NCBI GenBank assembly: GCA_965205655.1
Contig: CBDBIJ010000022.1
Location: 1-64,000 of the forward strand
DNA: 64,000 bases
Source: Candidatus Latescibacterota bacterium
GTDB lineage: Bacteria > Latescibacterota > UBA2968 > UBA8231
Direction of reading: 5' to 3'
Shown here: positions 4,821 through 24,910 of the stretch, piece by piece
Position numbering within the stretch: the first letter of the stretch is position 1
How the letters are laid out: each line of letters starts with the position of its first letter
Program-made: the position numbers and the translations under genes
The notes under the pieces: model-generated
The model's database searches: none
The model's input: only the letters and a program-made list of their open reading frames with translations
Told to the model about the DNA's origin: nothing

Positions 4821-6203
4821 TTACTCGATCCAGAAGGAGTAGAGACTCGCCTGATGCAGGAAGAACTTCAACCGCACCGGCTTCTCGAAGACGAGATCAT
4901 GCTCTTTTAAGAAGGAAACCTTGTGGCGTGTGTCATCTCCCGTAACAGGCGGCGGTTCCGTGCCTGGGACCCCGAACCCGGGAATGACTCTGCGCGACTC
5001 GCCGTCGAGAATAGAGACGTAGATCTCCCCCCAATTGGCGTTGACGTTGACGTAGATATCCTCGCCCCTCAAATCGAACGGTTTGGTAACGATGACTCCG
5101 CACAAATCGCCTTCTGCGGAGACAAACCCGTCCGGTCGCAGCTTGGCCAGCGATAGGGCCCCCGAGTCGACGAAGTGCTCGGGATTCACTGCGAGCCGGT
5201 GTAACTCCTTCGTCTTTCCGAATTTCCTAAAGTCCTCAAGGCTCGATCCCCATCTCAGGCCGTTGTAATAACACCAGATCTCGCCGTCGTCGCGCACCAC
5301 AGGCTGCCCTGCCATCAACAGCTGACCGGTATCATAGGTTTCACCGTCGTACGGCTCGACGCCGATGAATACCTCGCGATCGCCGACCCGCTCCCAGTTG
5401 TAGAGGTCGCGGGAAACGCTCAGCTCGATCTGATTGATGCGAGTGAAATTGGTCGGCGGTGCCGGCAAGGCCCCGAAGGGATTGAAGATCACAGGGAAAC
5501 CGACGTAGAGCCCCTGGTAGGGCATGACCGCCATGTTGTAGACCTCGGCGATGTAGTCCTCTTCGTCGACGACGGCAGGTGTCAGGAAAGCGGGATCATC
5601 GATGAGGCGGCGAACCCGCTGGCGGCAGTTTTCGCGGTCGATCTCGTCTGCGTGGAAGATGAGCTTCGGTTCGCTGAAGGTCTCGAAATCCGCACTCGTC
5701 GACAGCCACACCGAACGCCCCCACTCCGTTCCCAGCTTCACCATCGCCAGAAACTGTCCGGTGTACGGGTCGTAGGTGAACTGTGACTCGTCCGAGCTGG
5801 GTATGGGCGGTGTGTCGATCTTCGTCCAGCTGAAGCCGTCAGGCGATACCGCGGGCTGTTTGTCCCCGCCGCCGAGCAGTGCCTTGTAGCGGCGACCCGG
5901 ATCCGCGTCCGCCTCGTCGCGCACGATGTGACACAGGCTGTCGGCCGGACTGCAGGCGATATCGTTTTCCCAGTGTTCCCCATCTTCCGAAGTGGCGTAG
6001 CGTCCGGAGTACCACCACTCCCAGAGCCCCTTCTCGGAGTTCCACTGCGGACAGTTGCGGCTCTCGACTCCACCCGCTATGAGGGGTCCGCATTTCTTCG
6101 GCTGATGCAGCTTCCTGGAGATTCGCTCCTCGAGATCGACGGCGCCGCGGTCGATGAAGAGCTGGTGATGTTTCTTCGGATCGATCTTGTCCATACTGCT
6201 CAT
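4821..6203 (-). CDS. Glycosidase-like beta-propeller protein, paralog 3 (intact)
   Basis: 460 aa; HQLFID start, SEDGEHW, SPDGFSW, SRDLYNW, LRPDGFVS, ASLYSFW end. Same architecture as the two upstream paralogs. Confidence 0.75.
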   Translation of the reverse strand: MSSMDKIDPKKHHQLFIDRGAVDLEERISRKLHQPKKCGPLIAGGVESRNCPQWNSEKGLWEWWYSGRYATSEDGEHWENDIACSPADSLCHIVRDEADADPGRRYKALLGGGDKQPAVSPDGFSWTKIDTPPIPSSDESQFTYDPYTGQFLAMVKLGTEWGRSVWLSTSADFETFSEPKLIFHADEIDRENCRQRVRRLIDDPAFLTPAVVDEEDYIAEVYNMAVMPYQGLYVGFPVIFNPFGALPAPPTNFTRINQIELSVSRDLYNWERVGDREVFIGVEPYDGETYDTGQLLMAGQPVVRDDGEIWCYYNGLRWGSSLEDFRKFGKTKELHRLAVNPEHFVDSGALSLAKLRPDGFVSAEGDLCGVIVTKPFDLRGEDIYVNVNANWGEIYVSILDGESRRVIPGFGVPGTEPPPVTGDDTRHKVSFLKEHDLVFEKPVRLKFFLHQASLYSFWIE

Positions 6204-8731
6204 TCGCGCGAACCGGCGAACTCCTCGTAAAAGCTGTCGAAGGCAGGAGCCGTGCCGCAGACGTAGAGGGCGTCCTCTTCGGCGAGCACGAATGACGGCG
6301 GGATGTCCATGATGACTTCACCGGCGCGCTCGACGGCGATGACCGAGCAGCCCGTGCGTTCGCGAACTCTGGATTCCAACGGATGGTGGCCGGCCAGCCG
6401 GCCGGCGTCGAGCTTGGCGAGCTTGATGCGCGCCTGATGCGAGACCATCTCACCAAGGACGTGATGGGCGAGAAGCTGCCCGGCGACCTGACTTACCGAT
6501 AGAGCGAAGTCGGCGCCGGCCTGCTGAATGCGTCCTACATTCTCTGCCAGGGCAGCGCAGGCGATGATAGGCACGTCCGGAGCGTGGTTGCGGACGACGA
6601 TTGCTGCGAGGAGGGTGGCGCTGTCGTTTTCGGCCGCGAGAATGACGACGCGAGCCGTGGACACGGAGGCGCGCTCCAGCACGCGCGTATCGAGAACGTC
6701 GATGACGCACACCTGTTCATCTGCGTCGGTGAGCATCTCGACCAGCTTGCTACCTACATCTCCGAAGCCCGCCACCACGATCGCTCCTTGCTGTGTGATC
6801 GGCCTGGCGACGTCGCTGAGACGCTTGATGCTGTCGGGGCTGCCGGCGGCTACCAGAATCATCCCCGGCCGCAGAACCTGATCGGCTGCTGGCGGCGAGT
6901 GGAGCGCCTCGTCCACCCACTGACCGACGATGTGGGCCCCGGTGTCGGCGCGGATGCCCGATTCCAAAAGGGTCTTGTTGGCCAATGGGCTCTCGTCGTG
7001 GACGCGAACCTCGGCCACCTCGAGCAAATGCCCGAGCGGCTCCACACCCGTCACGCTTGGCCCTATTCTGGAACTGGCGCGCACGGCGACAGCGGCCGCC
7101 AGCACATGATTGGGAGTGAACGCCGCTGTCGCTCCGGCGAGCTGCATCGGCGCTCGGTGATTGGGGTTGTCGATCAGTGCGACGATTGGACCTTCGAATC
7201 CAAGCTCGCGGGCACTTGCCGCGAGCAAGGCGTTGTGCTCGTCCTCGCCGTTGGCCACCAGGGCTCGCGCCTTTGTCAGCGGCCGCAGGTCGAGATGCCC
7301 TTCTGCGATTGAGGTGTGCGCGACCCGTCGGCGTCGCGCATGCAACCGCCGCGCTGTGGTCTCGTCCTCTTCGATCACAACGCTGCTCAGGCCACGGCTG
7401 TCGAGCTCCTCCAACAGCGAGTCTACTTCGGGACCGTATCCGTAGATCACAACCGAACCTTCCAGGTCGGGCAACGAATGCGGGAGTGGCCCCTCATAGC
7501 GCTCCTCTACGAGTGGCGAGCTGAACTTGTCGATCTGCACGACACCGCTGGTTGCATCCGTCTGCCGGACCGCCTTTCCCTTGAGCATCACGGCGCACCC
7601 CTTCAACGCCAGCGGTGTGAACAGGTTCAGGAGGAAGGCGGTGAAAATCAGCGCCGTGAAAATTCCCTGGTCGATGGCTCCCTGGGCCAGAGCCAGCGAG
7701 GCCAGAATGAACGCCATCTCGGCTCGTCCGCACATGCCGACGCCGACAGTCAGCGCTTCGCGGCGCGGCATCCCCATGCGCAGAGCCATGGCGCCGGCAC
7801 TGAGGATCTGGCCGACGATCACGATAACCGTCAGTAAGACGATGAAGGCCACGCCGGCGGCACTGATGTCGAACGTGATGGAAAAACCCAGCGAAATGAA
7901 AAAAATGGGGCCTAGAAACGAATACCCGATTCCGTAGGCGCGATCGTTGACAATCCGCACCAGATTCGGGTGCGCCACCTTGTCCTCGAAGAACAGGCCC
8001 GCCATATAGGCGCCGAGAATCATGTGGAGGCCGATGGCTTCGGCAAACAGGCCTGCGCCGATCGCAGTGAACAGTACAAAGGTGAACCCTTTCCCTCCCT
8101 CGGAGCGGAACGGCAGGGTGAGCCGGGGATAGATGAATCGCCCCAGTGCCACCGAGACGGCGAAAAAGCCCACGACCTTGCCCAGAGTGATCAGGATGCC
8201 CATGGGTTCGAACGTGCCACCTGACAGAACGCCGATGACGAGGCCGAAGAAAACGAGCGTCAGTAGGTCATCGATCACGCAGCTGGCGATGACGACCCGT
8301 GCCAAGCGCGTGTTGCCGAGCCCCAGATCCTTGAGGCTCTTGAGCGTTATCACCACGGCGGTGGCCGTCATCGTCAGCCCGACGAAGGTGGCGCCGACCG
8401 GGTCCATGCCGAAGAGCGTGGCGACTCCGAAGCTGACCGTGAACGGCACGATGGCCCCGACCACGGCGACTCCCAGCGAGCGCTTTAGCGCGTCGTAGAA
8501 TTCGAGCGGCTGCGTCTCCAGGCCGGCGTGGAACATCAGAAAGAATATGCCGATCTCGGCCAGCAGCTTGATGGCCTCACCCGGCTCGATCAGGCCCAGC
8601 ACGGCCGGACCGAGCAACACTCCAACGATCAGCTCACCCATCACCGTCGGCAGGCCGAGCGGGCGCAGCGTCACGGCCACCAGCCAGATGCTGGCGAGCA
8701 GAATCAGCAGATCGAAACCGACTTCGTGCAC
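6200..8731 (-). CDS. Cation:proton antiporter (CPA2/Kef-like) with tandem TrkA-N/TrkA-C (RCK) domains
   Basis: Hydrophobic N-terminal half with GELIVGVLLGP and VIDD; then VVIYGYG and VVAGFGDVG Rossmann motifs and TrkA-C segments. Likely start is GTG at 8731. Confidence 0.9.
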   Translation of the reverse strand: MHEVGFDLLILLASIWLVAVTLRPLGLPTVMGELIVGVLLGPAVLGLIEPGEAIKLLAEIGIFFLMFHAGLETQPLEFYDALKRSLGVAVVGAIVPFTVSFGVATLFGMDPVGATFVGLTMTATAVVITLKSLKDLGLGNTRLARVVIASCVIDDLLTLVFFGLVIGVLSGGTFEPMGILITLGKVVGFFAVSVALGRFIYPRLTLPFRSEGGKGFTFVLFTAIGAGLFAEAIGLHMILGAYMAGLFFEDKVAHPNLVRIVNDRAYGIGYSFLGPIFFISLGFSITFDISAAGVAFIVLLTVIVIVGQILSAGAMALRMGMPRREALTVGVGMCGRAEMAFILASLALAQGAIDQGIFTALIFTAFLLNLFTPLALKGCAVMLKGKAVRQTDATSGVVQIDKFSSPLVEERYEGPLPHSLPDLEGSVVIYGYGPEVDSLLEELDSRGLSSVVIEEDETTARRLHARRRRVAHTSIAEGHLDLRPLTKARALVANGEDEHNALLAASARELGFEGPIVALIDNPNHRAPMQLAGATAAFTPNHVLAAAVAVRASSRIGPSVTGVEPLGHLLEVAEVRVHDESPLANKTLLESGIRADTGAHIVGQWVDEALHSPPAADQVLRPGMILVAAGSPDSIKRLSDVARPITQQGAIVVAGFGDVGSKLVEMLTDADEQVCVIDVLDTRVLERASVSTARVVILAAENDSATLLAAIVVRNHAPDVPIIACAALAENVGRIQQAGADFALSVSQVAGQLLAHHVLGEMVSHQARIKLAKLDAGRLAGHHPLESRVRERTGCSVIAVERAGEVIMDIPPSFVLAEEDALYVCGTAPAFDSFYEEFAGSRE

Positions 8732-8735
8732 GACG

Positions 8736-9095
8736 CTACTTCCACTTTTCCAGAATGAATTCGCAGCCGAAACCGTAGGTCCGCGTCTCGTCGACGAGGA
8801 GGGCCATCTCCGGAAACTTGATGATCCGCCAGCCGTCCGCCATGGCATCGGCCACCGATCCGTAAGGCCAGTCCTCCTCACTCGATGGATCTTGAAAACT
8901 GCCGTTCTCGAATCGGCTCATGCCGATCACCTCGCTCGTGAGCGACGATCCCTTCGCCTGCAGATAAAGAATGCTCTGTCGCTTTGACGATTTGTCGGCC
9001 AGCTCGCCGATCCTCCGCAGACTCTCCTCGGTCAGCGAGCCCCGCCTGAACTCCTCGATGCAGGACTCGATCTGCTGCTCAACCGTCGTCGCCAT
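8736..9095 (-). CDS. Small hypothetical protein translationally coupled to the PhyH gene
   Basis: ATG at 9095 overlaps the PhyH stop (TGATG); 119 aa ending PYGSVADAMADGWRIIKFP...EFILEKWK. Confidence 0.7.
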   Translation of the reverse strand: MATTVEQQIESCIEEFRRGSLTEESLRRIGELADKSSKRQSILYLQAKGSSLTSEVIGMSRFENGSFQDPSSEEDWPYGSVADAMADGWRIIKFPEMALLVDETRTYGFGCEFILEKWK

Positions 9096-9699
9096 CAGCG
9101 CCTTGCTCGCGTTCCGGGCGCTGCCGCGTCGCAATGGGAACAGCTTTGGTCAGAATCGTAGTAGTAGACAGGCAAGTTGTTGCTCCAGGCGCGGCACTTC
9201 TCGTGCTCGCCGCACAGCCAGTAGAACATCTCCGCAGAATCATCCATGGCGCGATGGGCGTCGCGATGGTCGACGTTGAAGTCGGTGCGGTGGGAGGCAT
9301 GGGCGAGCTCGAGCTTCGGATCCGTGATCCAGTCCCGCGTTGGAGTGGCCGTGCGCATGTACCAGTACTTGAGTAGGTTGCGCCGCCTTTTCGCCGTCGA
9401 CGCGGCGCGCCGATGCCAGACCGAGTACATCGTCACAAAGATTGACCCCGCTGGCGCCGCAGTCGAGACAGTCCCCTTGAAACTGCGGTAGTGATCCATG
9501 TGTGGAAACCTGCTGAACAGGAAGTGTGAGCCTGGCAGTATTTCCGTCGGCCCCAGCTCTTTCGGCGTGTCCTGGGGATAGTAGAACACCTGCAGCGAGT
9601 CGAGCTCCGGACCGTAGTGGGAGGAGCCGTCACGGTGCCACTGTTGTGCCTCCGTCGGCTCTTCTGTCAGATGATTGTGGAGGTACGCGAGTTCAACCA

Positions 9700-9733
9700 G
9701 TCAACGCAACACCTTCGTCAAGGCAACACCTTC
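9700..9733. repeat. Tandem 17-bp duplication of the inner part of the IS30 inverted repeat
   Basis: GTCAACGCAACACCTTC followed directly by GTCAAGGCAACACCTTC. Confidence 0.85.
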
Positions 9734-10880
9734 ACTGAATCGTTCTGCGGGTGAAACGAACCCCAACGTCTTCCGCGGGCGCTGGTTCAGTTGAAGAGCG
9801 ACTCTGTTCAGGTCGGCTTGGGAGAATGGCGACAGATCGGTCTTCCTCGGGAAGTACTGTCGAAGAAGGCGATTCGTGTTCTCATTTGTGCCTCGTTGCC
9901 AGGGACTCTGAGGATCACAGAAATACACCTCGACGTCAGTTGCGATCGAGAACTCCTTGCGCCGAGCTAGCTCCATTCCTCGATCCCAGGCAAGGGACAA
10001 CCGCACCGCGGAGGGGAGTCGTTTCACCTGGCTGATCAGCGCTTTGACAACGGTCTCGGTGTCTTTGCCATTGAGCTTCACGAGCATCGTGAACCGAGAC
10101 TGCCGCTCCACTCAACGTGGCGATGTGCGTGTTGTTCGACCCCGAGATCAAGTCTCCCTCCCAGTGGCCGGGAACGGCGCGGTCCTCGATCTCGGCAGGC
10201 CGCTCGCTGATGGATACGGCGTCGACGATCCGGCCTCTCGGCTGATCGCGTGTGCTTGCCTTCTTGGATCGCCGCATCATCCTTCGCGTCCGCCGATGCG
10301 CAATGAGGTCCTTGCTGAGTGCCCCGCGTGCCTGGATGAAGAGAGTTCGATAGATCGTTTCGTGGGATATCTGCATATTTCCTAAAAGCGCATACTCCCG
10401 CTTCAGCCATCCCGATATCTGCTCAGGTGACCACTTCAGGCGTAGCTTGCCCGCCACGACTCGCCGCAAACGAAGATTGGATGCGAGTCGGCAGCATTTC
10501 GGCCGGCGAGCGCGCGTCCAGGCTGCTTGGTCAGCGACGTTTGCTCGGTACTTCTGCCGCCCGCCATTGCGGGCAATCTCTCGGCTAACCGTCGAGGGTG
10601 CACGTTCAACAGCGGCCGCAATTATTCGTATCGATTTTCCCGCAGCGATACCTCGAGAGATCTCTTCACGCTCTTCCCAGCCAAGAGCCCATCGAGAGCG
10701 TCGACGCGGCATTGGTACGATACCCCCATTGGCGGCGATGACACCATGAATCGACGCCGGATGCTTCCCGAGCGCCCGACCAATATCGCTATGCGACTGG
10801 CCGCTCTTCCATCGACGCCATACCTCCGACTTCTGTGACGCGGACAATCCTGGTCGTCCCATCTGAGCCATGTGCAACAT
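9701..10880 (-). CDS. IS30-family DDE transposase (one frameshift near 10112)
   Basis: Helix-turn-helix STVSREI, WSPEQI, SHETIY, GHWEGD, WDRGME, SPWQRGTNEN, LNQRPRKTLG. Confidence 0.93.
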
Positions 10881-11239
10881 CTCCTATGATTAGATTAGTG
10901 GGGAGAATGTTGCATTGACCGATTGAATATACCGGAGGGCATCGTCAGTCTGAAGTTGCTGCCCAGCAGCGAGCGCACCGCTCCAGCTGCCTGCGGATTG
11001 AGGATCACATTGTCGACGAACCAGTCCTCCTCGAGAAGCTTCTCAGTCTGGCTATCGTGCAACAGAAACTCACAGGTCCTCCTGTTGACCTCGTCCGGCA
11101 CGGCCGTCTCGAATACGAGATATCCCTCTCGGCAAAACTTCATTACCTCGGCATCGGTGAGCGTCGGCTCGCATTCGTGCGTTATCATTCCCTCTCTCCG
11201 TCCGCATCGAGCGTCTCTCCCTGGCAAGTATAGAGCCGG

Positions 11240-11861
11240 TCAGTCGTTACCTCCAGATCTCAGCCCCGCACTCCTTCGAACATCACGCCCTCGATCGGAA
11301 CTTTGCTCAGTACGGAAAGAAAGCGCAGGTGATGTCGGCAAAGCTCTGAATCTCCATATCCGAGCCGAGTACGTAGAGGCCATACGTACGCTGCGGCTGA
11401 ACCGGCAGGAGATAGGCCTCTCGAGAGTGAATAGCCCCGGGCGACCTGAGAGTATGAGATGTGCACGGGCATCACTGCCAGCAACCAGGCGGCGATGAGG
11501 CCAGCAGAAGAGCTGTGGAGTAGATTTCGACCGAGGACGAAGACGAGTGGCACGGCAGGATACCGGCGGCAAACGCGGATAACCTCGCGGTCCAACTCTC
11601 TGTACCCAGGAGGCGTACCGAAAAACGAACTAAGAGGCTGTGCAGGATGTGATTGTTCGGTGCGGCGTCCGAGGTGACGATGCGTTCATAGGGCTGTGCA
11701 GCGATCGCCTCCAGCGTGTAGGCCTCGTCGTGTCCGAGGCTGCTTTCCAGCGTCTGGAGGCGCAGCGCGCAGGCGGCGATCACCGCGGCGAGAAGGAGGA
11801 TCGCACGCGTATGCGCGGAAGAGATCCATCTAGCAGACAGCGTGGCTATGGCGCCGGTCAT
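11240..11861 (-). pseudogene. Truncated, frameshifted GT-C (PMT/GT39-like) membrane glycosyltransferase
   Basis: Transmembrane segment then LRL...SLGHDEAYT (DE motif), NNHILHSLL, ARL, LLAVMPVHISYSQVARGYSL, spread over three frames. Only about 200 codons remain. Confidence 0.7.
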
Positions 11862-11895
11862 GCCCCAATATAGGGCGGATTCTGCACGGGCTGGT

Positions 11896-12592
11896 TTACA
11901 AATCAACCTCCTGCTGCCCTACGACCAGTGCCACTTTGTTGTTACCGGCGGCCGAGCGTACCGACTGGAGAAACGCGTTAGGCTGCGTGCCACTCTTGAG
12001 CATGACGATGAAGACGAGCTCCTGGAGCACCCCGCCGGACACCGATTCCATGGCCACCAACCGGCTCTCTGTTAGATGCTCACGAAAGACCGGCTCCAGC
12101 GTTTCTTCTTGGTCACCTCCCACCGGCATGCGCACTCGCAGGATCCGCTCCGTCACCTGCTTGTCGAACACGTCCAGCCTGTGCATGATGGTGATGACGA
12201 CAGCGAAAACGGCCGTCGCGAAGGCAGCCAGCATGTAGAACCTGGTGCCGCACGCCATGCCGATGGCCATCGCCAGAAACATGAAGCCGATGTCCCGTGT
12301 CTCCTTGACGGCGTTGCGGAATCGAATCACCGACAGGGCACCGACCAGTGAGAAGGCGCGCGCTATGTTTCGAGCCGATGATGAGCATGATGAGCCCGGT
12401 GACCATGCTCATGATGACGAGTGTCTGCGCGAACGACTGGGCGTAGGAGGTGCCGCGATGGGTGGCGCGCTAGACGAGACCGATCACCATCGATGTCGCG
12501 AAGCTCAGAAACAGGACGATGGCGACGTCCGCAAACGTAAAAACGCTGGTAACATCTTTGAAGCGCTCCATTTCTTTGATCAGCTCATCCAT
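11896..12592 (-). CDS. DUF4956-family membrane protein (in-frame TAG at 12470-12472, frameshift near 12368)
   Basis: MDELIKEM...IGLV*RATHRGTSYAQSFAQTLV...IIGSNIARAFSLVGALSVIRFRNAVKETRDIGFMFLAMAIGMACG; ACT-like C-terminus. Confidence 0.85.
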
Positions 12593-13352
12593 TCCCTACC
12601 CCCTCATCGAAGGCGCCGGCCTCGACCTCGCAGACCGGCGACAGAAGTTCCAGCTTTCTCAGGAGCTGGGCGCCAGCGCAGTACTTGCTGTACCGTCGCA
12701 GCTCGCATCGGTGTCGCGCCAGCATGTTCGCCAGCCACAGCGGTACCGCGTTGTTCGCCTTTACTTCCATGATCATCAGCGACGGCGCGGCGACGACGTG
12801 TCGCTCACTTGTCGACGACAGGCCCGAGGTCGCCGGGGCCGTCCACAACGAGTGGTCGAAAGTGACGCGGAGCCCGGGCTCGTACCGCCCACCCACGAAG
12901 GCGTTTCGCCTGTAGCCGACCACACAAGTCGGCTGCAATGCTAGAGCCCGGGCGAGAAAGGTCACTTCGTCTGCGACCACCGCGTCAGCCTCATCCTGGC
13001 CGCTGTATTCGAGTTGTCCGCTGCACAGCGTATAGGCCTCCGCCAGAGGCAGGCTCATCCGCCGCTTTTGAGTCGTGCGGTTGATGCGCTGTTTGATCTC
13101 CACGAATACGGCGGCATCCTCATCGTCGCCGTAGCGCCGGATACGGAGTTTGCGCCGAAACTTGATCCCCTCCCGTTTCGCCCGCATGAACGCAAGATCG
13201 GCCGTATCGTAGTAAAGGCTCGTGACGTTGTAGGAGCCATCCAGAGACGCATTGTGGTCCGGCAGCATCTGGGTATCGAGATCCTGCTTCAGCGCTTCAA
13301 CCTGGGCTGAGGTTACGACGTACTTCAGCTCGAACCGGTTGAAGCGCTTCAC
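12585..13352 (-). CDS. VTC domain (polyphosphate polymerase / triphosphate tunnel metalloenzyme) protein
   Basis: RFELKY, SLYYDT, KLRIRRY, EIKQR, YRRNAF, RVTFD, MEVK and YSKY motifs all intact. Confidence 0.9.
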   Translation of the reverse strand: MKRFNRFELKYVVTSAQVEALKQDLDTQMLPDHNASLDGSYNVTSLYYDTADLAFMRAKREGIKFRRKLRIRRYGDDEDAAVFVEIKQRINRTTQKRRMSLPLAEAYTLCSGQLEYSGQDEADAVVADEVTFLARALALQPTCVVGYRRNAFVGGRYEPGLRVTFDHSLWTAPATSGLSSTSERHVVAAPSLMIMEVKANNAVPLWLANMLARHRCELRRYSKYCAGAQLLRKLELLSPVCEVEAGAFDEGVGNG

Positions 13353-13903
13353 GGCGATCTCTCCAGCTTGACCGTCATCGGCTGGGCGGCGTCACCCGAG
13401 CGGTGATTTCCTCCCTTGAGACGCACCTCGACGAGCTGGGGAAATGGGCCGTCGCCCGGCAGCTGCCATATGAATGGCTCATCCCCCGAGGTGGTGCCGC
13501 GCCGCTCGCTGCCGCCCACACTCGCCCGGATCGTCAACCCCTCGCCGATCGGGCTCACGATGACGAGACTGTTCGCCCCCGCCGGCGCTCGTCGCAGCGC
13601 GTAGGCGTACCCGGAGTCGACGATGCCACCCGTGTTGGCAGAGATAAGGCCGCTCGGGGCGCCTTTCAGCATGTTGTCGGCCAGACCCGGATTGCGCTCC
13701 AGCGTCTGCCGCAGCAGTCCCACCTCGTCCCGTGAAAGAGCTCCGCGGCTTCCGAGCATGAGCTCGAGCTGCATTTGCCAGACCCGCTCGAGCGGCGGCG
13801 TCCGCAGACCCCAGCCGAAGAAAACGACACTCGCGAGGGCGGCCACTATAAGCCATACAAATCCCCCACCCGGTTTCGCTCGATAGCGCGCGGTTGGGGT
13901 CAC
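13349..13903 (-). CDS. Hypothetical protein with an N-terminal membrane anchor
   Basis: GTG at 13903 overlaps the upstream stop (GTGA) and its own TGA overlaps the VTC start. One hydrophobic helix, FVWLIVAALASVVFFGWG. Confidence 0.7.
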   Translation of the reverse strand: MTPTARYRAKPGGGFVWLIVAALASVVFFGWGLRTPPLERVWQMQLELMLGSRGALSRDEVGLLRQTLERNPGLADNMLKGAPSGLISANTGGIVDSGYAYALRRAPAGANSLVIVSPIGEGLTIRASVGGSERRGTTSGDEPFIWQLPGDGPFPQLVEVRLKGGNHRSGDAAQPMTVKLERSP

Positions 13904-16747
13904 ACTCCACCTCCGCCCGAGCGAGTCGACTGGTGATCGAAGCCTGACCAACCGAGAAGCTGCTGCGCCAGCTGCCCCGGAAACCCCTCCGTCGGGAGGA
14001 TCTTCCTGATCAGTTCGACATCGATCGGATTCCCACGCGCTTCCTCCATCGTCGTTTCACATTCGACGACGTACATATCGCTGGCGCCGATCCTGCTCGC
14101 GCCCTGGTAGTGGACGTCCCGCCGCTTCGTTGTCCATCGCCGTCTTCGTCCGGTAGATGAGGCTCCGCGCCACGCGGACCCGCGAGGCGTTCTTGGCCAG
14201 CACTCCCACACCGCTGTGACTGATAAACAGACTGTGTGCGGTCAGGTCGCTCTCCTCACCGGCAGACACGGCGTTGTTCGTGCACTCCGCGAGGGTGCTG
14301 TCCGAGATCCGGATCGTCGAACCCATGAGATCGACGCAATCGTCACCGGCGCCGGCGATGCGGATCCCCCGCAATTCTGCACTGGAAAATTCGAGATCGA
14401 TGCCGTCTGTTGGCGCTCCTGCAATGTCGATCTCACTCAGACTGGCACCCTCCAGATACGTCGTGTGCAGCACGTCGCCAGCATCGGTAATGCGACTGAA
14501 GCTCACAGCCTCGATCGTAATGTCACGCGTGTCGTAGATGTTCATGAAGCTCGGATACGTTACGCCCGTGTGCCCGACGACCCGCGTCCCGCCGTCGATG
14601 CGAACGTGCTTCAGAATCGAGCCGGCAGTGGCGGGTCCGTGGATGGCGATGCCCCCGAATGGCTGCGCTGGCTGCGAGCGCCCGATCTCTATCGGCTGCC
14701 GTGCGGTTCCGACAGCCGTCAGTGGGCCTCGGAAAATGAGACTCGCTTCGGGCCCCAGCTCGATCCGCGTTCCGGCGACGATCCTGACGTGCTGGTGTGG
14801 CGCGAATGTCTGCGTCGTCGGCAACTGAACGAGCGCCGGACCGAGCTCGACGATCTCCGGCTGCGGCTCTGGCTCGAACGACCATGGATGGGGTGCCCGT
14901 TGCCCCGCCGCGAATACCGGTACGGCGTCGGCCGCCGGCAGCGTCTGGGGCAACTCGGGTTCGACAGCTGACTGCGCCACCGGAACCAGGCGCGTCGAGC
15001 TGCCTGTCACCTGGTTGTCGAGGACGAGTGCCACGCCGACGGGCGCGCAGGGTGTTTTCAGATGGTAGCTGTATGTCCGCGGCTCTGCCACGACCCGCGC
15101 GGTTCCCCGCTTCGGGATCGGATCGGCTCTGCGCACCAGGGCCATGCCGGCATACAGGTCCTCGAATGCGGCCACCGGGCTGCCGCCGCCCACAGGGGCC
15201 GCCGCCACAGCGTGGTCCGCCTCGTCGAGGCGACCATCGCGATTGACGTCTGCGAACCAGGCGTGCTCGCCCTCGCACGGAGCGCTCACCTGCACTTCCC
15301 GCAGCCGATGGGCCCCCTCCCCATTCACTTCGACGTCGACCCGCGCCAGGGTTGGTGAAATGACGTACATGGTCGCCGACGCGCTCGGCATCTCCAGACA
15401 GTCGAGGAGAAAGCGAACCCGGCGGCTGTGGCCCTGTATCTCCGCCCGCGAGGCGAGAACCCACTTGGCCGTCGACATCGGCCGTACCATGAAACGGTGA
15501 AAGCGACTGACCCGGGGCAACAGTTTGTAGGCGTCCCAGTGTGCATCCGCGATCAGGTGCGGACGCATCTGTTCGAACAGTTCGTCCGCCCGCCTCCGCA
15601 CGTGCGGCACTGAAGCTTCTCCCAGAAGCAGCTCAAAGACGATCCTGTTGCGCCGTGCCAGGTAACCGGGAGTCATCTTGAGCCGTATTAGCAGGGGATT
15701 GTCGACGAGGTTGACGTGCGGCTCGTGGCGAAAACCGCGAAAACTCCAAGCCAGGGGCTCGAACTTTCCGCGGTACGGGTCGTAGTACAACTTGTGGTTG
15801 GTAAAGTAATCGTGTTCGTTGCCGCCGAAGACGACGTCGAGAGCGTCGAAGGTGGCGTACCGATCGAGATCGATCGTTTCCTCGGCGAACGACGCGAACC
15901 CGGCGAAACTCCCCTTTTGAACCGCGTCGAGCAGGCGATCGAGGGGCTCGAACTCTTCGTCGTGATCGGCGGCGCGGGACTCGACCTGCTGCCAGCCAGC
16001 GCGTGAGAAGAACAGTCCCCCCACACCGAGCCGGGGATCGATCTCGTCGGAGGAACCCGAGTACACGTTGCCGGGAATCCGGCGCCCGCGGCGCAGCACC
16101 CTCTCGGTGGGTTGTGCGGCGTAGCGGTACACGCCCATGTCGTTGTTGTTGAGGCGAACCCAGGCGGGATGGTATTCCGGCGCCAGCAGACCGAGCTCGC
16201 GGGCCAGATCGAAGATGAGCTGATCCTCCATGCCGAATGGCGTTGGATCGTTCAGCAGGTTGAAGATCCGCGTCCCGTCGATCAGATCGCCGCGCCCGAG
16301 ACGCAGCTTCATCGATTTCTGCTTGCCGAGCCAGTGCCACGGCTTGGTGCCGCGATAGCGCACTTTCATCTCGTTTATCGCCCCGTCCTTCTGGACGTGG
16401 CCTTTCACGTAGCCCCGCTTGCCGGAGTCCTTGCGCGGCTGATTCAGCCCGTCCAGGCTCTCCCGGGTCAGAGACAGCGAGAAGGTCGGCATGTCCTCAC
16501 TAACCGGCCGATCCTTGAGCGTTGTCCGTCGCAGGTCCCGAGTCAGCTCATCGTGCAGGGCGATCTGGAAAAGCTCCAAACTCCAGGGGGCTTCCACACC
16601 GCTGGCCCGGCTGTAGCGGTCGATCTGCGCGAAGGCGGACCACGAGTACCACACCACGGTCAGCAGCAGCGGCAGACTCATCAGCACACCCGTAGGTATG
16701 CTGATTTTGTAGAGCCGGAAACCGAATCGGTGCGTCGAGTAGATCAC
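13900..16747 (-). CDS. CotH kinase family protein with C-terminal parallel beta-helix domain (frameshift near 14120)
   Basis: N-terminal transmembrane segment; KVRYRG...KSMKLRL, ARELGLLAP, VRLNNNDMGVY, NHKLYYDP...FEPLAW; C-terminal DGIDLEFS/DDCVDLMGS/AVSAGEES beta-helix repeats. Confidence 0.85.
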
Positions 16748-16772
16748 GATGAGCCTTTACGGGCCGCTTCCC

Positions 16773-17936
16773 TCAGAAGCGGACCTGCGTCCACAGGTAG
16801 AGCCGATCGTCCGCAACATTATCGATCACGTCGCCTTCCTCCCACCGGAACTCGTAGTTGAGGAGCACGCGAAAGTCGTCGTTCGGCTCGCCGTAGTAGG
16901 CGCCCACAGTCCAACGAGTGAATTCATCGAGGAACGCCTCGTAGCGCAGCAAGGGACCCATCGGTCGCGCCATCTTGCCGATCACCGTCAGATAGTAGGC
17001 GTAGATCGTCTCCTCGTCGCCAAGCTCCTTCTGTGGTCCGATGGCGAACTCGCCGTTCACGTCGAATCTCGACCGCTCCAGCAGAAAGTCGGTGCCGGCC
17101 CGCTTGAACTTGATGAAGTGGCCGGTGACCGCGTCGGTCGAATCGGTCGCCGCGATGATCTCGTCTGGGTCCAGCCCTTCGAACTGGTCCCCGACAGCAC
17201 CGAAGATTCCCCACTGCCAGCCTCGGTCAGCTCCTCTTGCGTTGCGCAAGGCAGCTCGGCCGAAAAAGTTCTTCTTCTTGTTGTTGTCCCGCTGAACGTT
17301 CATGCCGGCGCCGTTGACGACGGTGGCATCGTAGCTGAATCGCGTGCCCCCTCCCAATGCCCGTCTTCCCATCAGAGTGACGCCGATATCCCGCAGGTTT
17401 AAACCGCGCGCCATGGCGCGCCATGCCATATTGTCCGACATCTCGGTCCGGTTGACGGTATAGAGCCAGCTCGACGAACGCCGATTCTCGAAGCCGAACG
17501 TCGTTTTGTGCTGGCCGACTCGCAGCCTGTTGGTGTCGCTAATCTTGAGATCGAAGTAGGCGTCGCGCAGCAGGCCGCCGACGTCGGGCGCCCGCGGGTC
17601 GATGTCCATCTCGTAGTTGAGGTACTTGTTGATCACCCCTTCGACTGACAGGCGCGCCCGCTGAACTCTGGAGCGACCTTCGTTGACCTCGCCGTCGCCG
17701 TTGCTGTCGATCGGCTGGTTGAGCACCTGGACCTGGATGTAGCCATAGACGTTCGGGCCGGTCGCCACATCCGGGTCGGCCTTCAGAACCGAATCCGATA
17801 TCGCCTCAGTGCCAGTATGGCCCCAGAGAAGGAGCGCGACAGGCAGCCATGCGGCAAGACCTCTTGCGGCAGGTCTACCGGTGCAAGATCCGCGCTCCAC
17901 AGCTGACTCTTTCGTTCTCCTGTTCGTCAGTCGCAT
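16773..17936 (-). CDS. Outer-membrane porin, phosphate-selective porin (OprO/OprP)-like
   Basis: VYGYIQ, VQRARL, LRDAYFD, LRVGQHKTTFGFE, RDIGV, DNNKKK; terminal ...WTQVRF beta-barrel signature. Confidence 0.8.
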   Translation of the reverse strand: MRLTNRRTKESAVERGSCTGRPAARGLAAWLPVALLLWGHTGTEAISDSVLKADPDVATGPNVYGYIQVQVLNQPIDSNGDGEVNEGRSRVQRARLSVEGVINKYLNYEMDIDPRAPDVGGLLRDAYFDLKISDTNRLRVGQHKTTFGFENRRSSSWLYTVNRTEMSDNMAWRAMARGLNLRDIGVTLMGRRALGGGTRFSYDATVVNGAGMNVQRDNNKKKNFFGRAALRNARGADRGWQWGIFGAVGDQFEGLDPDEIIAATDSTDAVTGHFIKFKRAGTDFLLERSRFDVNGEFAIGPQKELGDEETIYAYYLTVIGKMARPMGPLLRYEAFLDEFTRWTVGAYYGEPNDDFRVLLNYEFRWEEGDVIDNVADDRLYLWTQVRF

Positions 17937-18144
17937 GCCTCTCTTCCCTCCGTGTGATCCGTGGGTACTCGCGCCTTGCGGTATGGCGTCGGCGTGGATG
18001 GTCATGTGACGGTTGAGCAACGATTGTGCCCATCGGGCTGCCGGCCTCGTCCGTGGCCACAAAGCTTCCTCACACGGCCTGCAAGGCGAGATGTAGCCGT
18101 TTCTGGCCGGAACGGTCGTTATCTTGAGAAAAATGGAGGGAAGT

Positions 18145-18183
18145 CAGCGCTGGATTTTCAGCAGCGCTGGAGATTCAGCAGCG
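18145..18183. repeat. 2.3 tandem copies of a 17-bp unit, each full copy containing the palindrome CAGCGCTG
   Basis: CAGCGCTGGATTTTCAG CAGCGCTGGAGATTCAG CAGCG; adjacent TTGACA on the minus strand at 18192-18187. Confidence 0.7.
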
Positions 18184-23787: not shown

Positions 23788-24910
23788 TCACCTCGAGCTC
23801 CGCGCCGCCTCGATCGCCCACGACGAGATCCGCTCACCCTCAACGACTGCGAACTCCCGCGCCAGATTCGCCACTGTGCACGAGTGATTCGGAATGATCC
23901 GGACCTTCGAACCCACGTCCAGATCAAAGTCGGTTCGCACGACCTTGCCGTGCTCTTCCGACAATCCCTCCACCGAAAGATGGTGCTCAGGGCTCAGGTA
24001 GCGATCTTCGGGATAGGCCACTCCAAAGCCCCGCGTGCCGACCATCCCGTGCACTCCCGCATCCGATGTCAGCGTCTTGGAGCCGGCGTCGGTGATGAAG
24101 TAGTCCGCGTTCTTGCTGATCACCGTCGCCATGACCGTGAGAGCCACATCCTGCTCTGAGACCACCCCCACGCCAATCGGAAGCAGATCGAGGAAGACGT
24201 AGTTCCCCGGCCTGATCTCCGTTATTCCCTCGAAGCTCGTGGCCGCCAGCACCGTCGGTGTCGAGCCCACCGACACCTCCGGCACCGCGATCCCTGCTTC
24301 CGCGAGTGTGTCGGCGCACCCCAATCATGGTCCGGCGCTCGGCCTCAGCGACCTCGCCCGCCTCATCGCGCGATCCGGCGGCATACGCTTGCCCCGCATG
24401 TGAGAGTATTCCCCGGAATTCGAGTTTGTCGGACTGTCCGACCTTCTGAGCGAGCTCGACCGCCTGCGGGCTGTCGGGGTCGACGCCGCAGCGCCGCAGA
24501 CCAACGTCGACCTTGACGAACACGCCCAACGCCGCGTTTGCTCTGGAAACCGCCTCCGAGGCGATCTCCACGCCCGGTTCGGAATCCGCGACGACTCGCA
24601 GATCCACTCCTGGCTGCGAGTGCGCAAACAAGCGGTCGAATTTACCCGCGGACAGAATCGGCCGCGAAATGGTGATCGATTCGAAACCATTGTCGAGGAA
24701 GACGAGCGCTTCATCGACCGTCGCCACCGTCAGACCACATGCTCCGAGCGCAATCTGGCGCCTTCCGATTTCGACTGATTTGTGGGTCTTTGCGTGAGGA
24801 CGCAGTGTCACGCCATTGTCATCAGCACGACGCTGCATCGATTGCAGGTTCAACTCCAACTTTGCTAGATCGATCAATACCGCCGGCGTCTCAATAGTTG
24901 ATGCAGTCAT
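23788..24910 (-). CDS. D-threonine aldolase / D-serine dehydratase-like PLP enzyme (frameshift near 24320)
   Basis: TPAVLIDL, RPHAKTHKS, RCGV, GSTPT, EIRPGNYVFLD, DAGSK, LSEEHG, PNHSC. The shift is in a G run. Confidence 0.9.

Follow-up and report, generated by a model that had tools for sequence, protein, structure and literature searches.

The 64,000-nucleotide stretch analysed here (positions 1 to 64,000 of contig CBDBIJ010000022.1 of a Candidatus Latescibacterota bacterium; hereafter, the window) carries on its minus strand an operon in which a stand-alone VTC (triphosphate tunnel) domain and a DUF4956 membrane protein are encoded together with a porin and a CotH-fold protein. In the direction of transcription, the genes encode a porin of the OprO/OprP family (16773..17936, 387 amino acids, intact), a CotH-fold protein with a beta-sandwich, a right-handed beta-helix and a membrane anchor (13900..16747, frame broken), a single-pass membrane protein of an unnamed family (13349..13903, 184 amino acids), the VTC domain (12585..13352, 255 amino acids, intact), the DUF4956 protein (11896..12592, five helices and an ACT domain, broken by a stop and a frameshift) and a truncated GT-C (PMT_2-like) remnant (11260..11861). 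Coordinates and three-frame translation confirmed what a previous sequence-only reading of this DNA had described, six minus-strand genes in one orientation with overlaps (GTGA at 13900-13903 and 13349-13352, 8 nucleotides at 12585-12592), the overlap at 13900 being present in the second CotH frame only, owing to a frame break at 14132. The family assignments were also recovered, as Pfam returned Porin_O_P (E 2e-14; 54.1 bits against a cut-off of 20.9), CotH (9e-13) with a weak Beta_helix match (4.5e-4), VTC (7e-45) and DUF4956.

The window belongs to a 4.0 Mb, 84% complete genome assembly (G000) in which the operon genes are single-copy, with the exception of a paralogue of the GT-C gene. This gene had been counted as part of the operon, and as a remnant it is real (44% match to the PMT_2 paralogue on contig C127 of G000), but the similarity spans only ~11861 to ~11425 (some 145 codons, interrupted by a shift at 11555), and the remnant encodes no full-length multi-helix protein. 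Its absence from three orthologous loci and from 80 of 80 metagenomic loci of the CotH family ruled it out as an operon member, and it is regarded here as a local neighbour. The orthologous loci are those of the related genomes G008, G013 and G021. In G008 and G021 the order is porin, CotH, small membrane protein, VTC and DUF4956, followed by a PAP2 gene instead of GT-C and preceded by genes for a histidine kinase, a sigma-54 activator and a barrel; each of the two loci has frameshifts of its own, and between them every gene is found intact. Among 61 related genomes, a VTC match was detected in 18 and CotH in 26, CotH being present in 17 of the 18 genomes with VTC compared to 9 of the 43 others.

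Co-occurrence across genomes, which had been proposed for these genes, was found far beyond chance. In the best 80 of 299 VTC relatives from a GTDB scan, local profiles detected DUF4956 at 79 loci, the remaining locus stopping at a contig edge, together with CotH at 46, HlyD at 24 (one of them 4 kb off), TolC at 2 and a porin at 2. When only loci with full flanks were considered, CotH was present in 29 of 46, and either CotH or a member of a Cthe_2159-type cluster (named from its one scanned representative) in 36 of 46. A hydrophobic segment precedes the domain in 57 of 66 CotH open reading frames of at least 400 amino acids, and the third partner of VTC and DUF4956 is thus predicted to be nearly always extracytoplasmic. 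HlyD-type loci often carry CotH proteins with outer-surface sorting tails. Metagenomic loci of the CotH family (80 kept out of 96, many of them short) were divided by tree, or by motif for rows outside it, into 54 window-like and 26 sister-clade loci. The CotH-small protein-VTC-DUF4956 block was found in 30 of the 31 window-like loci with downstream room, whereas well-flanked sister loci had VTC and DUF4956 in 7 of 8 cases and the small protein in none. Fifteen window-like loci, two of them near duplicates, have 2 kb of flank on either side; 8 of these carry Porin_O_P, upstream of, downstream of or inside the block, which makes the porin a recurring partner. HlyD, TolC and GT-C homologues were detected in none of the 80, and among all loci examined the porin-type and HlyD/TolC-type operons did not overlap. 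These loci supersede an indirect matching of lists, by which 26 of 56 DUF4956 contigs of at least 5 kb also appeared in the CotH list. Both architectures coexist within one family, in which loci L026-L030 have the DUF4956-HlyD-TolC-VTC form plus a canonical CotH with lamin-tail and sorting domains.

The module is known in print beside pel operons, although uncharacterised for polyphosphate (polyP). The VTC-DUF4956-CotH triad has been described beside Gram-positive pel operons (10.1101/768473), it is listed in the C. perfringens locus NELoc-2 (PMC2879425), and triad deletions have been made in S. intermedius, in a study that found no instance of the triad away from pel loci (10.1101/2024.04.20.589940, PMC12345266); the preprint of that study expects polyP to remain cytoplasmic (10.1101/2024.04.20.589940). 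No pel genes were found among the neighbours scanned here, in which the Pel families were not searched for directly. The available parts of two reviews (PMC10657179, PMC12526157) contain nothing on bacterial VTC, and the full-text literature searched, with few subscription papers, yielded neither a bacterial VTC assay nor a transport model for VTC-DUF4956 nor a CotH pseudokinase.

The VTC protein had been described as a stand-alone domain with intact motifs, and the comparison with yeast Vtc4 agrees. A profile of the family matches Vtc4 (3g3q, E 6e-24), whereas phmmer with the window protein alone found no Vtc4, so that the profile is needed. Nine of nine Vtc4 catalytic residues are kept, with K10, R70, R72, K87, Y147, R149, E196, S222 and K223 corresponding to K200, R264, R266, K281, Y359, R361, E426, S457 and K458 of Vtc4, and they are near-invariant across 79 VTC sequences. 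In Vtc4 these residues coordinate triphosphate and Mn2+, and K458 is missing in the inactive Vtc2/3 (10.1101/2023.01.27.525886). The triphosphate tunnel metalloenzyme (TTM) hydrolases require an acidic patch that Vtc4 lacks (PMC4641920). Two of the three positions of their second-metal glutamates are basic in the window protein (R6, K198), as in Vtc4, and K96/R98 are likewise basic, the AtTTM3 glutamates having been mapped by motif and not by superposition. Judged from these residues, the site appears polymerase-like with one hydrolase-like feature, discussed below. The protein has neither an SPX domain nor a hydrophobic helix. As PPK1 is also encoded in G000, VTC would not be needed for bulk cytoplasmic polyP.

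Intact DUF4956 orthologues have 231 amino acids, and the pieces encoded in the window are 82-87% identical to them. A model of the G013 orthologue (predicted local distance difference test, pLDDT, 81) consists of five helices plus an ACT domain. An invariant R-F-R motif lies at the cytoplasmic end of helix 3, and charge bias places both this motif and the ACT domain in the cytoplasm. Searching PDB sequences with the DUF4956 profile gave a best E of 0.38 and no Vtc1-type chain at E<=5, and no VTC chain appeared among the 50 matches listed by either of the fold searches, which were dominated by the ACT domain and barely sampled the helix bundle. Prediction of a complex of three DUF4956 copies with VTC (the G013 pair) scored 0.01, which gives no verdict and was left unused. 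A channel role for DUF4956 would then be a functional analogy with the yeast complex, not homology.

The intact 951-residue CotH orthologue of G008 was modelled with a pLDDT of 93.9, and shows an anchor, a CotH domain, a beta-sandwich and a beta-helix. The CotH fold of this model was recognised with a Foldseek E of 2e-15 (TM-score 0.81 to 5jda; Z 24.7 to 5jd9), and the beta-helix is nearest to AlgG (4nk6, Z 28.6), its nearest enzymes acting on polyanionic alginate. The CotH/beta-helix family comprises 134 proteins of about 950 amino acids. Its anchor has a basic N-terminus (2.6 Lys/Arg against 0.2 Asp/Glu) and a single uncharged helix of 22 residues, with near-invariant Pro, Trp and Tyr, after which the domain follows. 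By the charge rule this anchor is N-in, so that the bulk of the protein likely lies in the periplasm, in keeping with the extracytoplasmic location assumed earlier.

While the fold of the proposed CotH kinase held, its catalytic residues did not. The window protein aligns without gaps to B. cereus CotH across the catalytic segment, in which the position of B. subtilis D251, the WD aspartate, was placed by its 23-residue spacing from D228, a spacing that matches two aspartates of 5jd9. At this position the window has Ser335 (15743-15745), and Asp is present in 8 of 115 family members compared to 53 of 57 other CotH domains; of the four domains among these 57 that lack it, two belong to the window's family. 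The residues seen at this position in the family are S, N, G, A, D and T. The D228 position is, in register, His312, with Asp in 0 of 115, although the adjacent Asp313 is kept in 114 of 115 and also in the sister clade. Asn317 is kept in 104 and Arg337 in 106 of the 115 members, and the family holds many near-invariant arginines. In a quick tree with long outgroup branches, the WD aspartate was found in 24 of 25 sister rows, in 9 of 47 window-like rows and in 1 of 18 rows of the window's own subclade. Kinases without this aspartate are usually inactive and sometimes metal-independent. The pattern of conservation looks like that of a pseudokinase or a rewired enzyme, and this degenerate-kinase CotH clade is the new part of the module. 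The sister clade (L163-L192) has an H-H-D-x-x-H-N-H loop with the WD motif intact and offers a natural active-site control; its loci often adjoin MBOAT, glycosyltransferase or phosphatase genes.

These residues bear directly on whether CotH could be an active periplasmic kinase, fuelled by polyP or ATP, that phosphorylates a glycan or protein held on the beta-helix with a site adapted to a new donor. The intact fold and the surviving HxD-type loop (Asp313, Asn317, Arg337) would suit such an enzyme, in which an arginine could substitute for the metal, as would the glycosyltransferase, MBOAT, PMT_2 and sulfotransferase genes beside some loci, most of them from the sister clade or Bacillota, and the reduction of Pel upon CotH deletion in S. 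intermedius (PMC12345266). Nevertheless, the D251-equivalent position varies freely, like a released site, the D228Q and D251A variants of B. subtilis CotH are inactive (10.1101/469122), and the GT-C neighbour is not conserved. In addition, G013 and one contig of sequencing run X2, in which the porin is joined straight to VTC, keep porin, VTC and DUF4956 with CotH missing or skipped. The kinase step as first proposed, with an active CotH kinase as the consumer, is weakened by the loss of the metal-binding aspartate and by these CotH-less loci, and an active kinase appears unlikely. More doubtful still, and the least probable of the readings considered, is that the clade swapped the metal-binding aspartate for arginines and performs a polyP-powered, ATP-free phosphorylation of an acidic envelope polysaccharide, switched by sigma-54 and following export by the split VTC.

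The 184-residue protein has the N-in helix expected of the anchored protein described before, and no Pfam family was assigned to it. Its family has 214 representatives at E<=0.001 and appears restricted to the window's CotH clade. The genes that follow CotH in the sister clade showed no alignment into a single family. Towards the C-terminus it resembles designed proteins with an immunoglobulin fold (E 9e-8), and an atlas search reached a top score of 0.85 with no named family. A signal-peptidase match in NCBIfam, weak and far under the cut-off, was dropped, NCBIfam giving otherwise nothing useful, and so was a Pfam match to Tse2 at E 0.057.

The assignment of the first gene as an OprO/P-like porin was borne out by the Pfam match, and a profile of its family matches OprO (4rjx) and OprP (2o4v) at E 3e-4 to 7e-4, over the N-terminal third only. 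All porin counts rest on Pfam calls, as the local porin profile also contained two unrelated barrels. Upstream of the gene lies a promoter core (18017..18030, minus strand) with GG-N10-GC spacing, which we take to follow the sigma-54 consensus. The core pattern has 27 matches in the genome, one of them in the window; a core is also found upstream of the porin in G021, G008 and G013, and upstream of CotH in locus L114. Tandem imperfect palindromes (18148..18180, minus strand), likely binding sites of a sigma-54 activator, are kept upstream of the porin in the same three genomes. The tandem pattern, built from the window and these genomes, has a single match in the 4.0 Mb genome, and a single palindrome site stands upstream of the sigma-54 box in L114 and L117, both outside the set from which the pattern was built. 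Shortly after the core, G021 and G008 also have GTCAC-like repeats with a period of 11 bases (L021:13590-13650, minus strand; L023:4870-4910, plus strand), presumably reminiscent of Pho boxes, of which the window has one good copy only. Between regulators and porin, relatives encode a barrel-like protein of 380 amino acids and a protein of 220 amino acids (L021:13855-15755, L022:2518-4322), with no Pfam or NCBIfam family for either.

The wider neighbourhood was scanned with Pfam on 86 proteins hand-picked from 173 listed, revealing phosphatases, a pyrophosphatase, lipoproteins with PPDK_N or DUF3108-like domains and, twice, a canonical CotH, with glycan genes mainly in the sister clade. Apparent lipoproteins with the ATP-binding PPDK_N domain adjoin four window-like operons (L032:1472-3493, L126:1675-3744, L134:5702-7759, L156:5822-7921); this is a second ATP-type fold that is seemingly exported and bears on the question of the phosphoryl donor. 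Together with the recurring porin, neighbours such as PAP2, PhoX, purple acid phosphatase, phytase-like, pyrophosphatase and ABC-permease genes would also fit inward scavenging, in which the porin admits polyP or pyrophosphate, which is captured by CotH and its beta-helix, passes DUF4956 and is converted by a reversed VTC to ATP or phosphate, and the route by which microbes take up external polyP has been stated to be unknown (PMC13318637). This conflicts with the pairing of the same VTC-DUF4956 core elsewhere with HlyD/TolC export parts and with the acidic hydrolase patch being mostly missing from VTC; moreover, periplasmic phosphatases would release phosphate without such a machine. We consider scavenging improbable, somewhat more so than the active kinase.

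Our preferred reading, to which we give a probability of about 40%, is that VTC and DUF4956 make polyP and deliver it into the periplasm, to be bound by a pseudokinase/beta-helix scaffold and retained there instead of fuelling ordinary protein phosphorylation. VTC would polymerise polyP from cytoplasmic ATP, and an oligomer of DUF4956 would thread the chain across the inner membrane. The anchored CotH-fold pseudokinase would then bind the chain in the periplasm, as a scaffold whose beta-helix carries an acidic envelope polymer against which the chain is held, and the porin would let phosphate species across the outer membrane. PolyP as product, DUF4956 as channel, the outward direction and binding by CotH are all points that we infer as likely. 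For outward delivery, the strongest indirect argument is that the duct tracks the partner, since HlyD accompanies surface-sorted CotH proteins whereas the porin, with no duct, accompanies a CotH protein anchored in the inner membrane.

Several observations weigh against this polyP-delivery reading, the strongest being the genetics of S. intermedius and the MgtC-like nature of the membrane protein. In S. intermedius, aggregation falls by more than half when DUF4956 or CotH is deleted, the two deletions shifting Pel in opposite directions, and a VTC deletion is not singled out as changed in the available part of that paper (PMC12345266), phenotypes that a simple pipeline does not predict. DUF4956 resembles MgtC (Pfam MgtC E ~0.0015, under the cut-off), and its helices are poor in basic residues (0.0-0.55 Lys/Arg per helix), whereas the yeast VTC channel is lined by Lys/Arg (PMC9911596). 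The VTC site has an invariant Glu8 where Vtc4 has Thr, which is the hydrolase-like feature mentioned above, and the literature searched contained no report of a bacterial VTC protein making polyP. The G013 locus, with porin, PAP2, VTC, DUF4956 and regulators, makes the CotH scaffold dispensable, OprO/P porins and phosphatase neighbours fit uptake as much as export, and locus counts are not independent, as kin share gene orders.

An alternative is a signalling or regulatory system, in which DUF4956 would act as an MgtC-like membrane regulator of how phosphate and ATP are handled, VTC would make or degrade a short phosphate signal in the cytoplasm, and periplasmic sensing would fall to the CotH pseudokinase and the small protein. 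MgtC-like helices with an ACT domain, the fact that ATP synthase and PhoR are acted upon by MgtC (as PMC12345266 summarises), the opposite Pel effects of the DUF4956 and CotH deletions and the adenylate-cyclase genes that flank three orthologous loci all suit this explanation. However, it explains neither the HlyD/TolC duct of other members nor the porin here, a polymerase-type lysine (Lys223) is present in VTC together with basic exit residues, and the relatives already have a separate pair of kinase and sigma-54 activator upstream. Signalling appears unlikely, though it is the best placed of the alternatives to polyP delivery.

The sequence-only reading had taken the system to be functional in this genome, and none of the frame breaks figured in it. 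An extra base at 14132 breaks the CotH frame near the C-terminus. DUF4956 is interrupted twice, by an in-frame TAG (12470-12472) and by a frameshift due to one extra base at 12368. Run X1 is possibly the source sample, and its contigs carry the breaks with no gaps at a depth of 4-6. In near-identical contigs from runs of two other studies, the extra base at 14132 is absent (X2 and X3), the one at 12368 is absent (X2, X3 and X4) and there is one base more at 11555. A motif search for housekeeping genes gave 17 matches, of which 2 were spurious and dropped. One of the 15 real ones (~38 kb) is frameshifted, that of IF-2 (L111:1720, contig C98 of G000), by one extra base missing from a near-identical X2 contig at a site that the X1 contigs do not cover. 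The G000 assembly therefore carries some consensus errors. Nevertheless, because lesions are dense in the operon (three in 6 kb, compared to one in 38 kb of housekeeping sequence), the regulator pair, barrel and PAP2 genes found upstream or nearby in relatives were not found in G000 (closest regulator match 46%, compared to 72% between relatives) and an IS30-like element interrupts the next gene, recent decay of the operon seems somewhat more probable than misassembly. In either case the design of the operon must be taken from orthologues, and with intact orthologues available the copy in the window is ill suited to experiments.

The IS30-like element (9688-10932, minus strand, within 9095-11227) has a split transposase with HTH_38 and rve matches. 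Neither half of the gene that it splits gets a Pfam match, although its HxD motif gives it the look of what we take to be a phytanoyl-CoA-dioxygenase-type protein. Elsewhere in the window, a D-serine-dehydratase-like gene (23788-24910, minus strand) is spread over two frames, and a single protein (6200-8881, minus strand) combines a Na+/H+ exchanger domain with two TrkA_N/TrkA_C pairs.

VTC polymerases are treated as eukaryotic in reviews, yet one narrow GTDB scan contained the 299 relatives mentioned above. If the pair makes and translocates polyP, bacteria would possess a third route of synthesis, by which the envelope is loaded, and the source of phosphoryl groups for exported CotH proteins, a question open even for spores (10.1101/469122), would be explained. 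The loci also provide a natural experiment, with the same core, a porin in place of HlyD/TolC, a CotH without the catalytic aspartate and a sister clade that keeps it, so that comparing window-type and sister-clade loci separates a kinase fuel from a polyP deposit.

Compared to known systems, the operon shares with the yeast VTC complex (Vtc4/Vtc3/Vtc1; 3g3q, 7ytj, 8i6v) the nine catalytic tunnel residues and a tight link, here genetic, between the polymerase and a small multi-helix membrane protein. It differs in that the bacterial polymerase has no SPX domain, is not fused to membrane helices and has the additional invariant residues Glu8, Arg66 and Lys68, and in that its partner has no detected homology to Vtc1. 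With MgtC/SapB this partner shares the helix bundle and the ACT domain, the latter comparable to the C-terminus of M. tuberculosis MgtC (2lqj; Z 8.4, root-mean-square deviation 3.0, 85 residues aligned, tied with other ACT domains), but it falls below the MgtC cut-off, has the invariant R-F-R and is nearly always next to VTC. The porin resembles Pseudomonas OprO and OprP in its Pfam and profile matches, although it aligns with them over the N-terminal third only. With the Bacillus CotH kinase (5jd9/5jda) the fold is common over 338 residues at a root-mean-square deviation of 2.5 Å, whereas the window protein has His at D228, with Asp as the next residue, Ser at D251, and in addition a membrane anchor and 500 more residues. 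Closest in gene content are the pel accessory genes SIR_1594/1593/1592 and NELoc-2, with the same three families in one operon. Here the host has two membranes, a porin and an unnamed membrane protein are added, and CotH is fused to a beta-helix and lacks the WD aspartate; and, unlike in the account of the S. intermedius authors, the triad is widespread, with no pel genes seen among the neighbours scanned.

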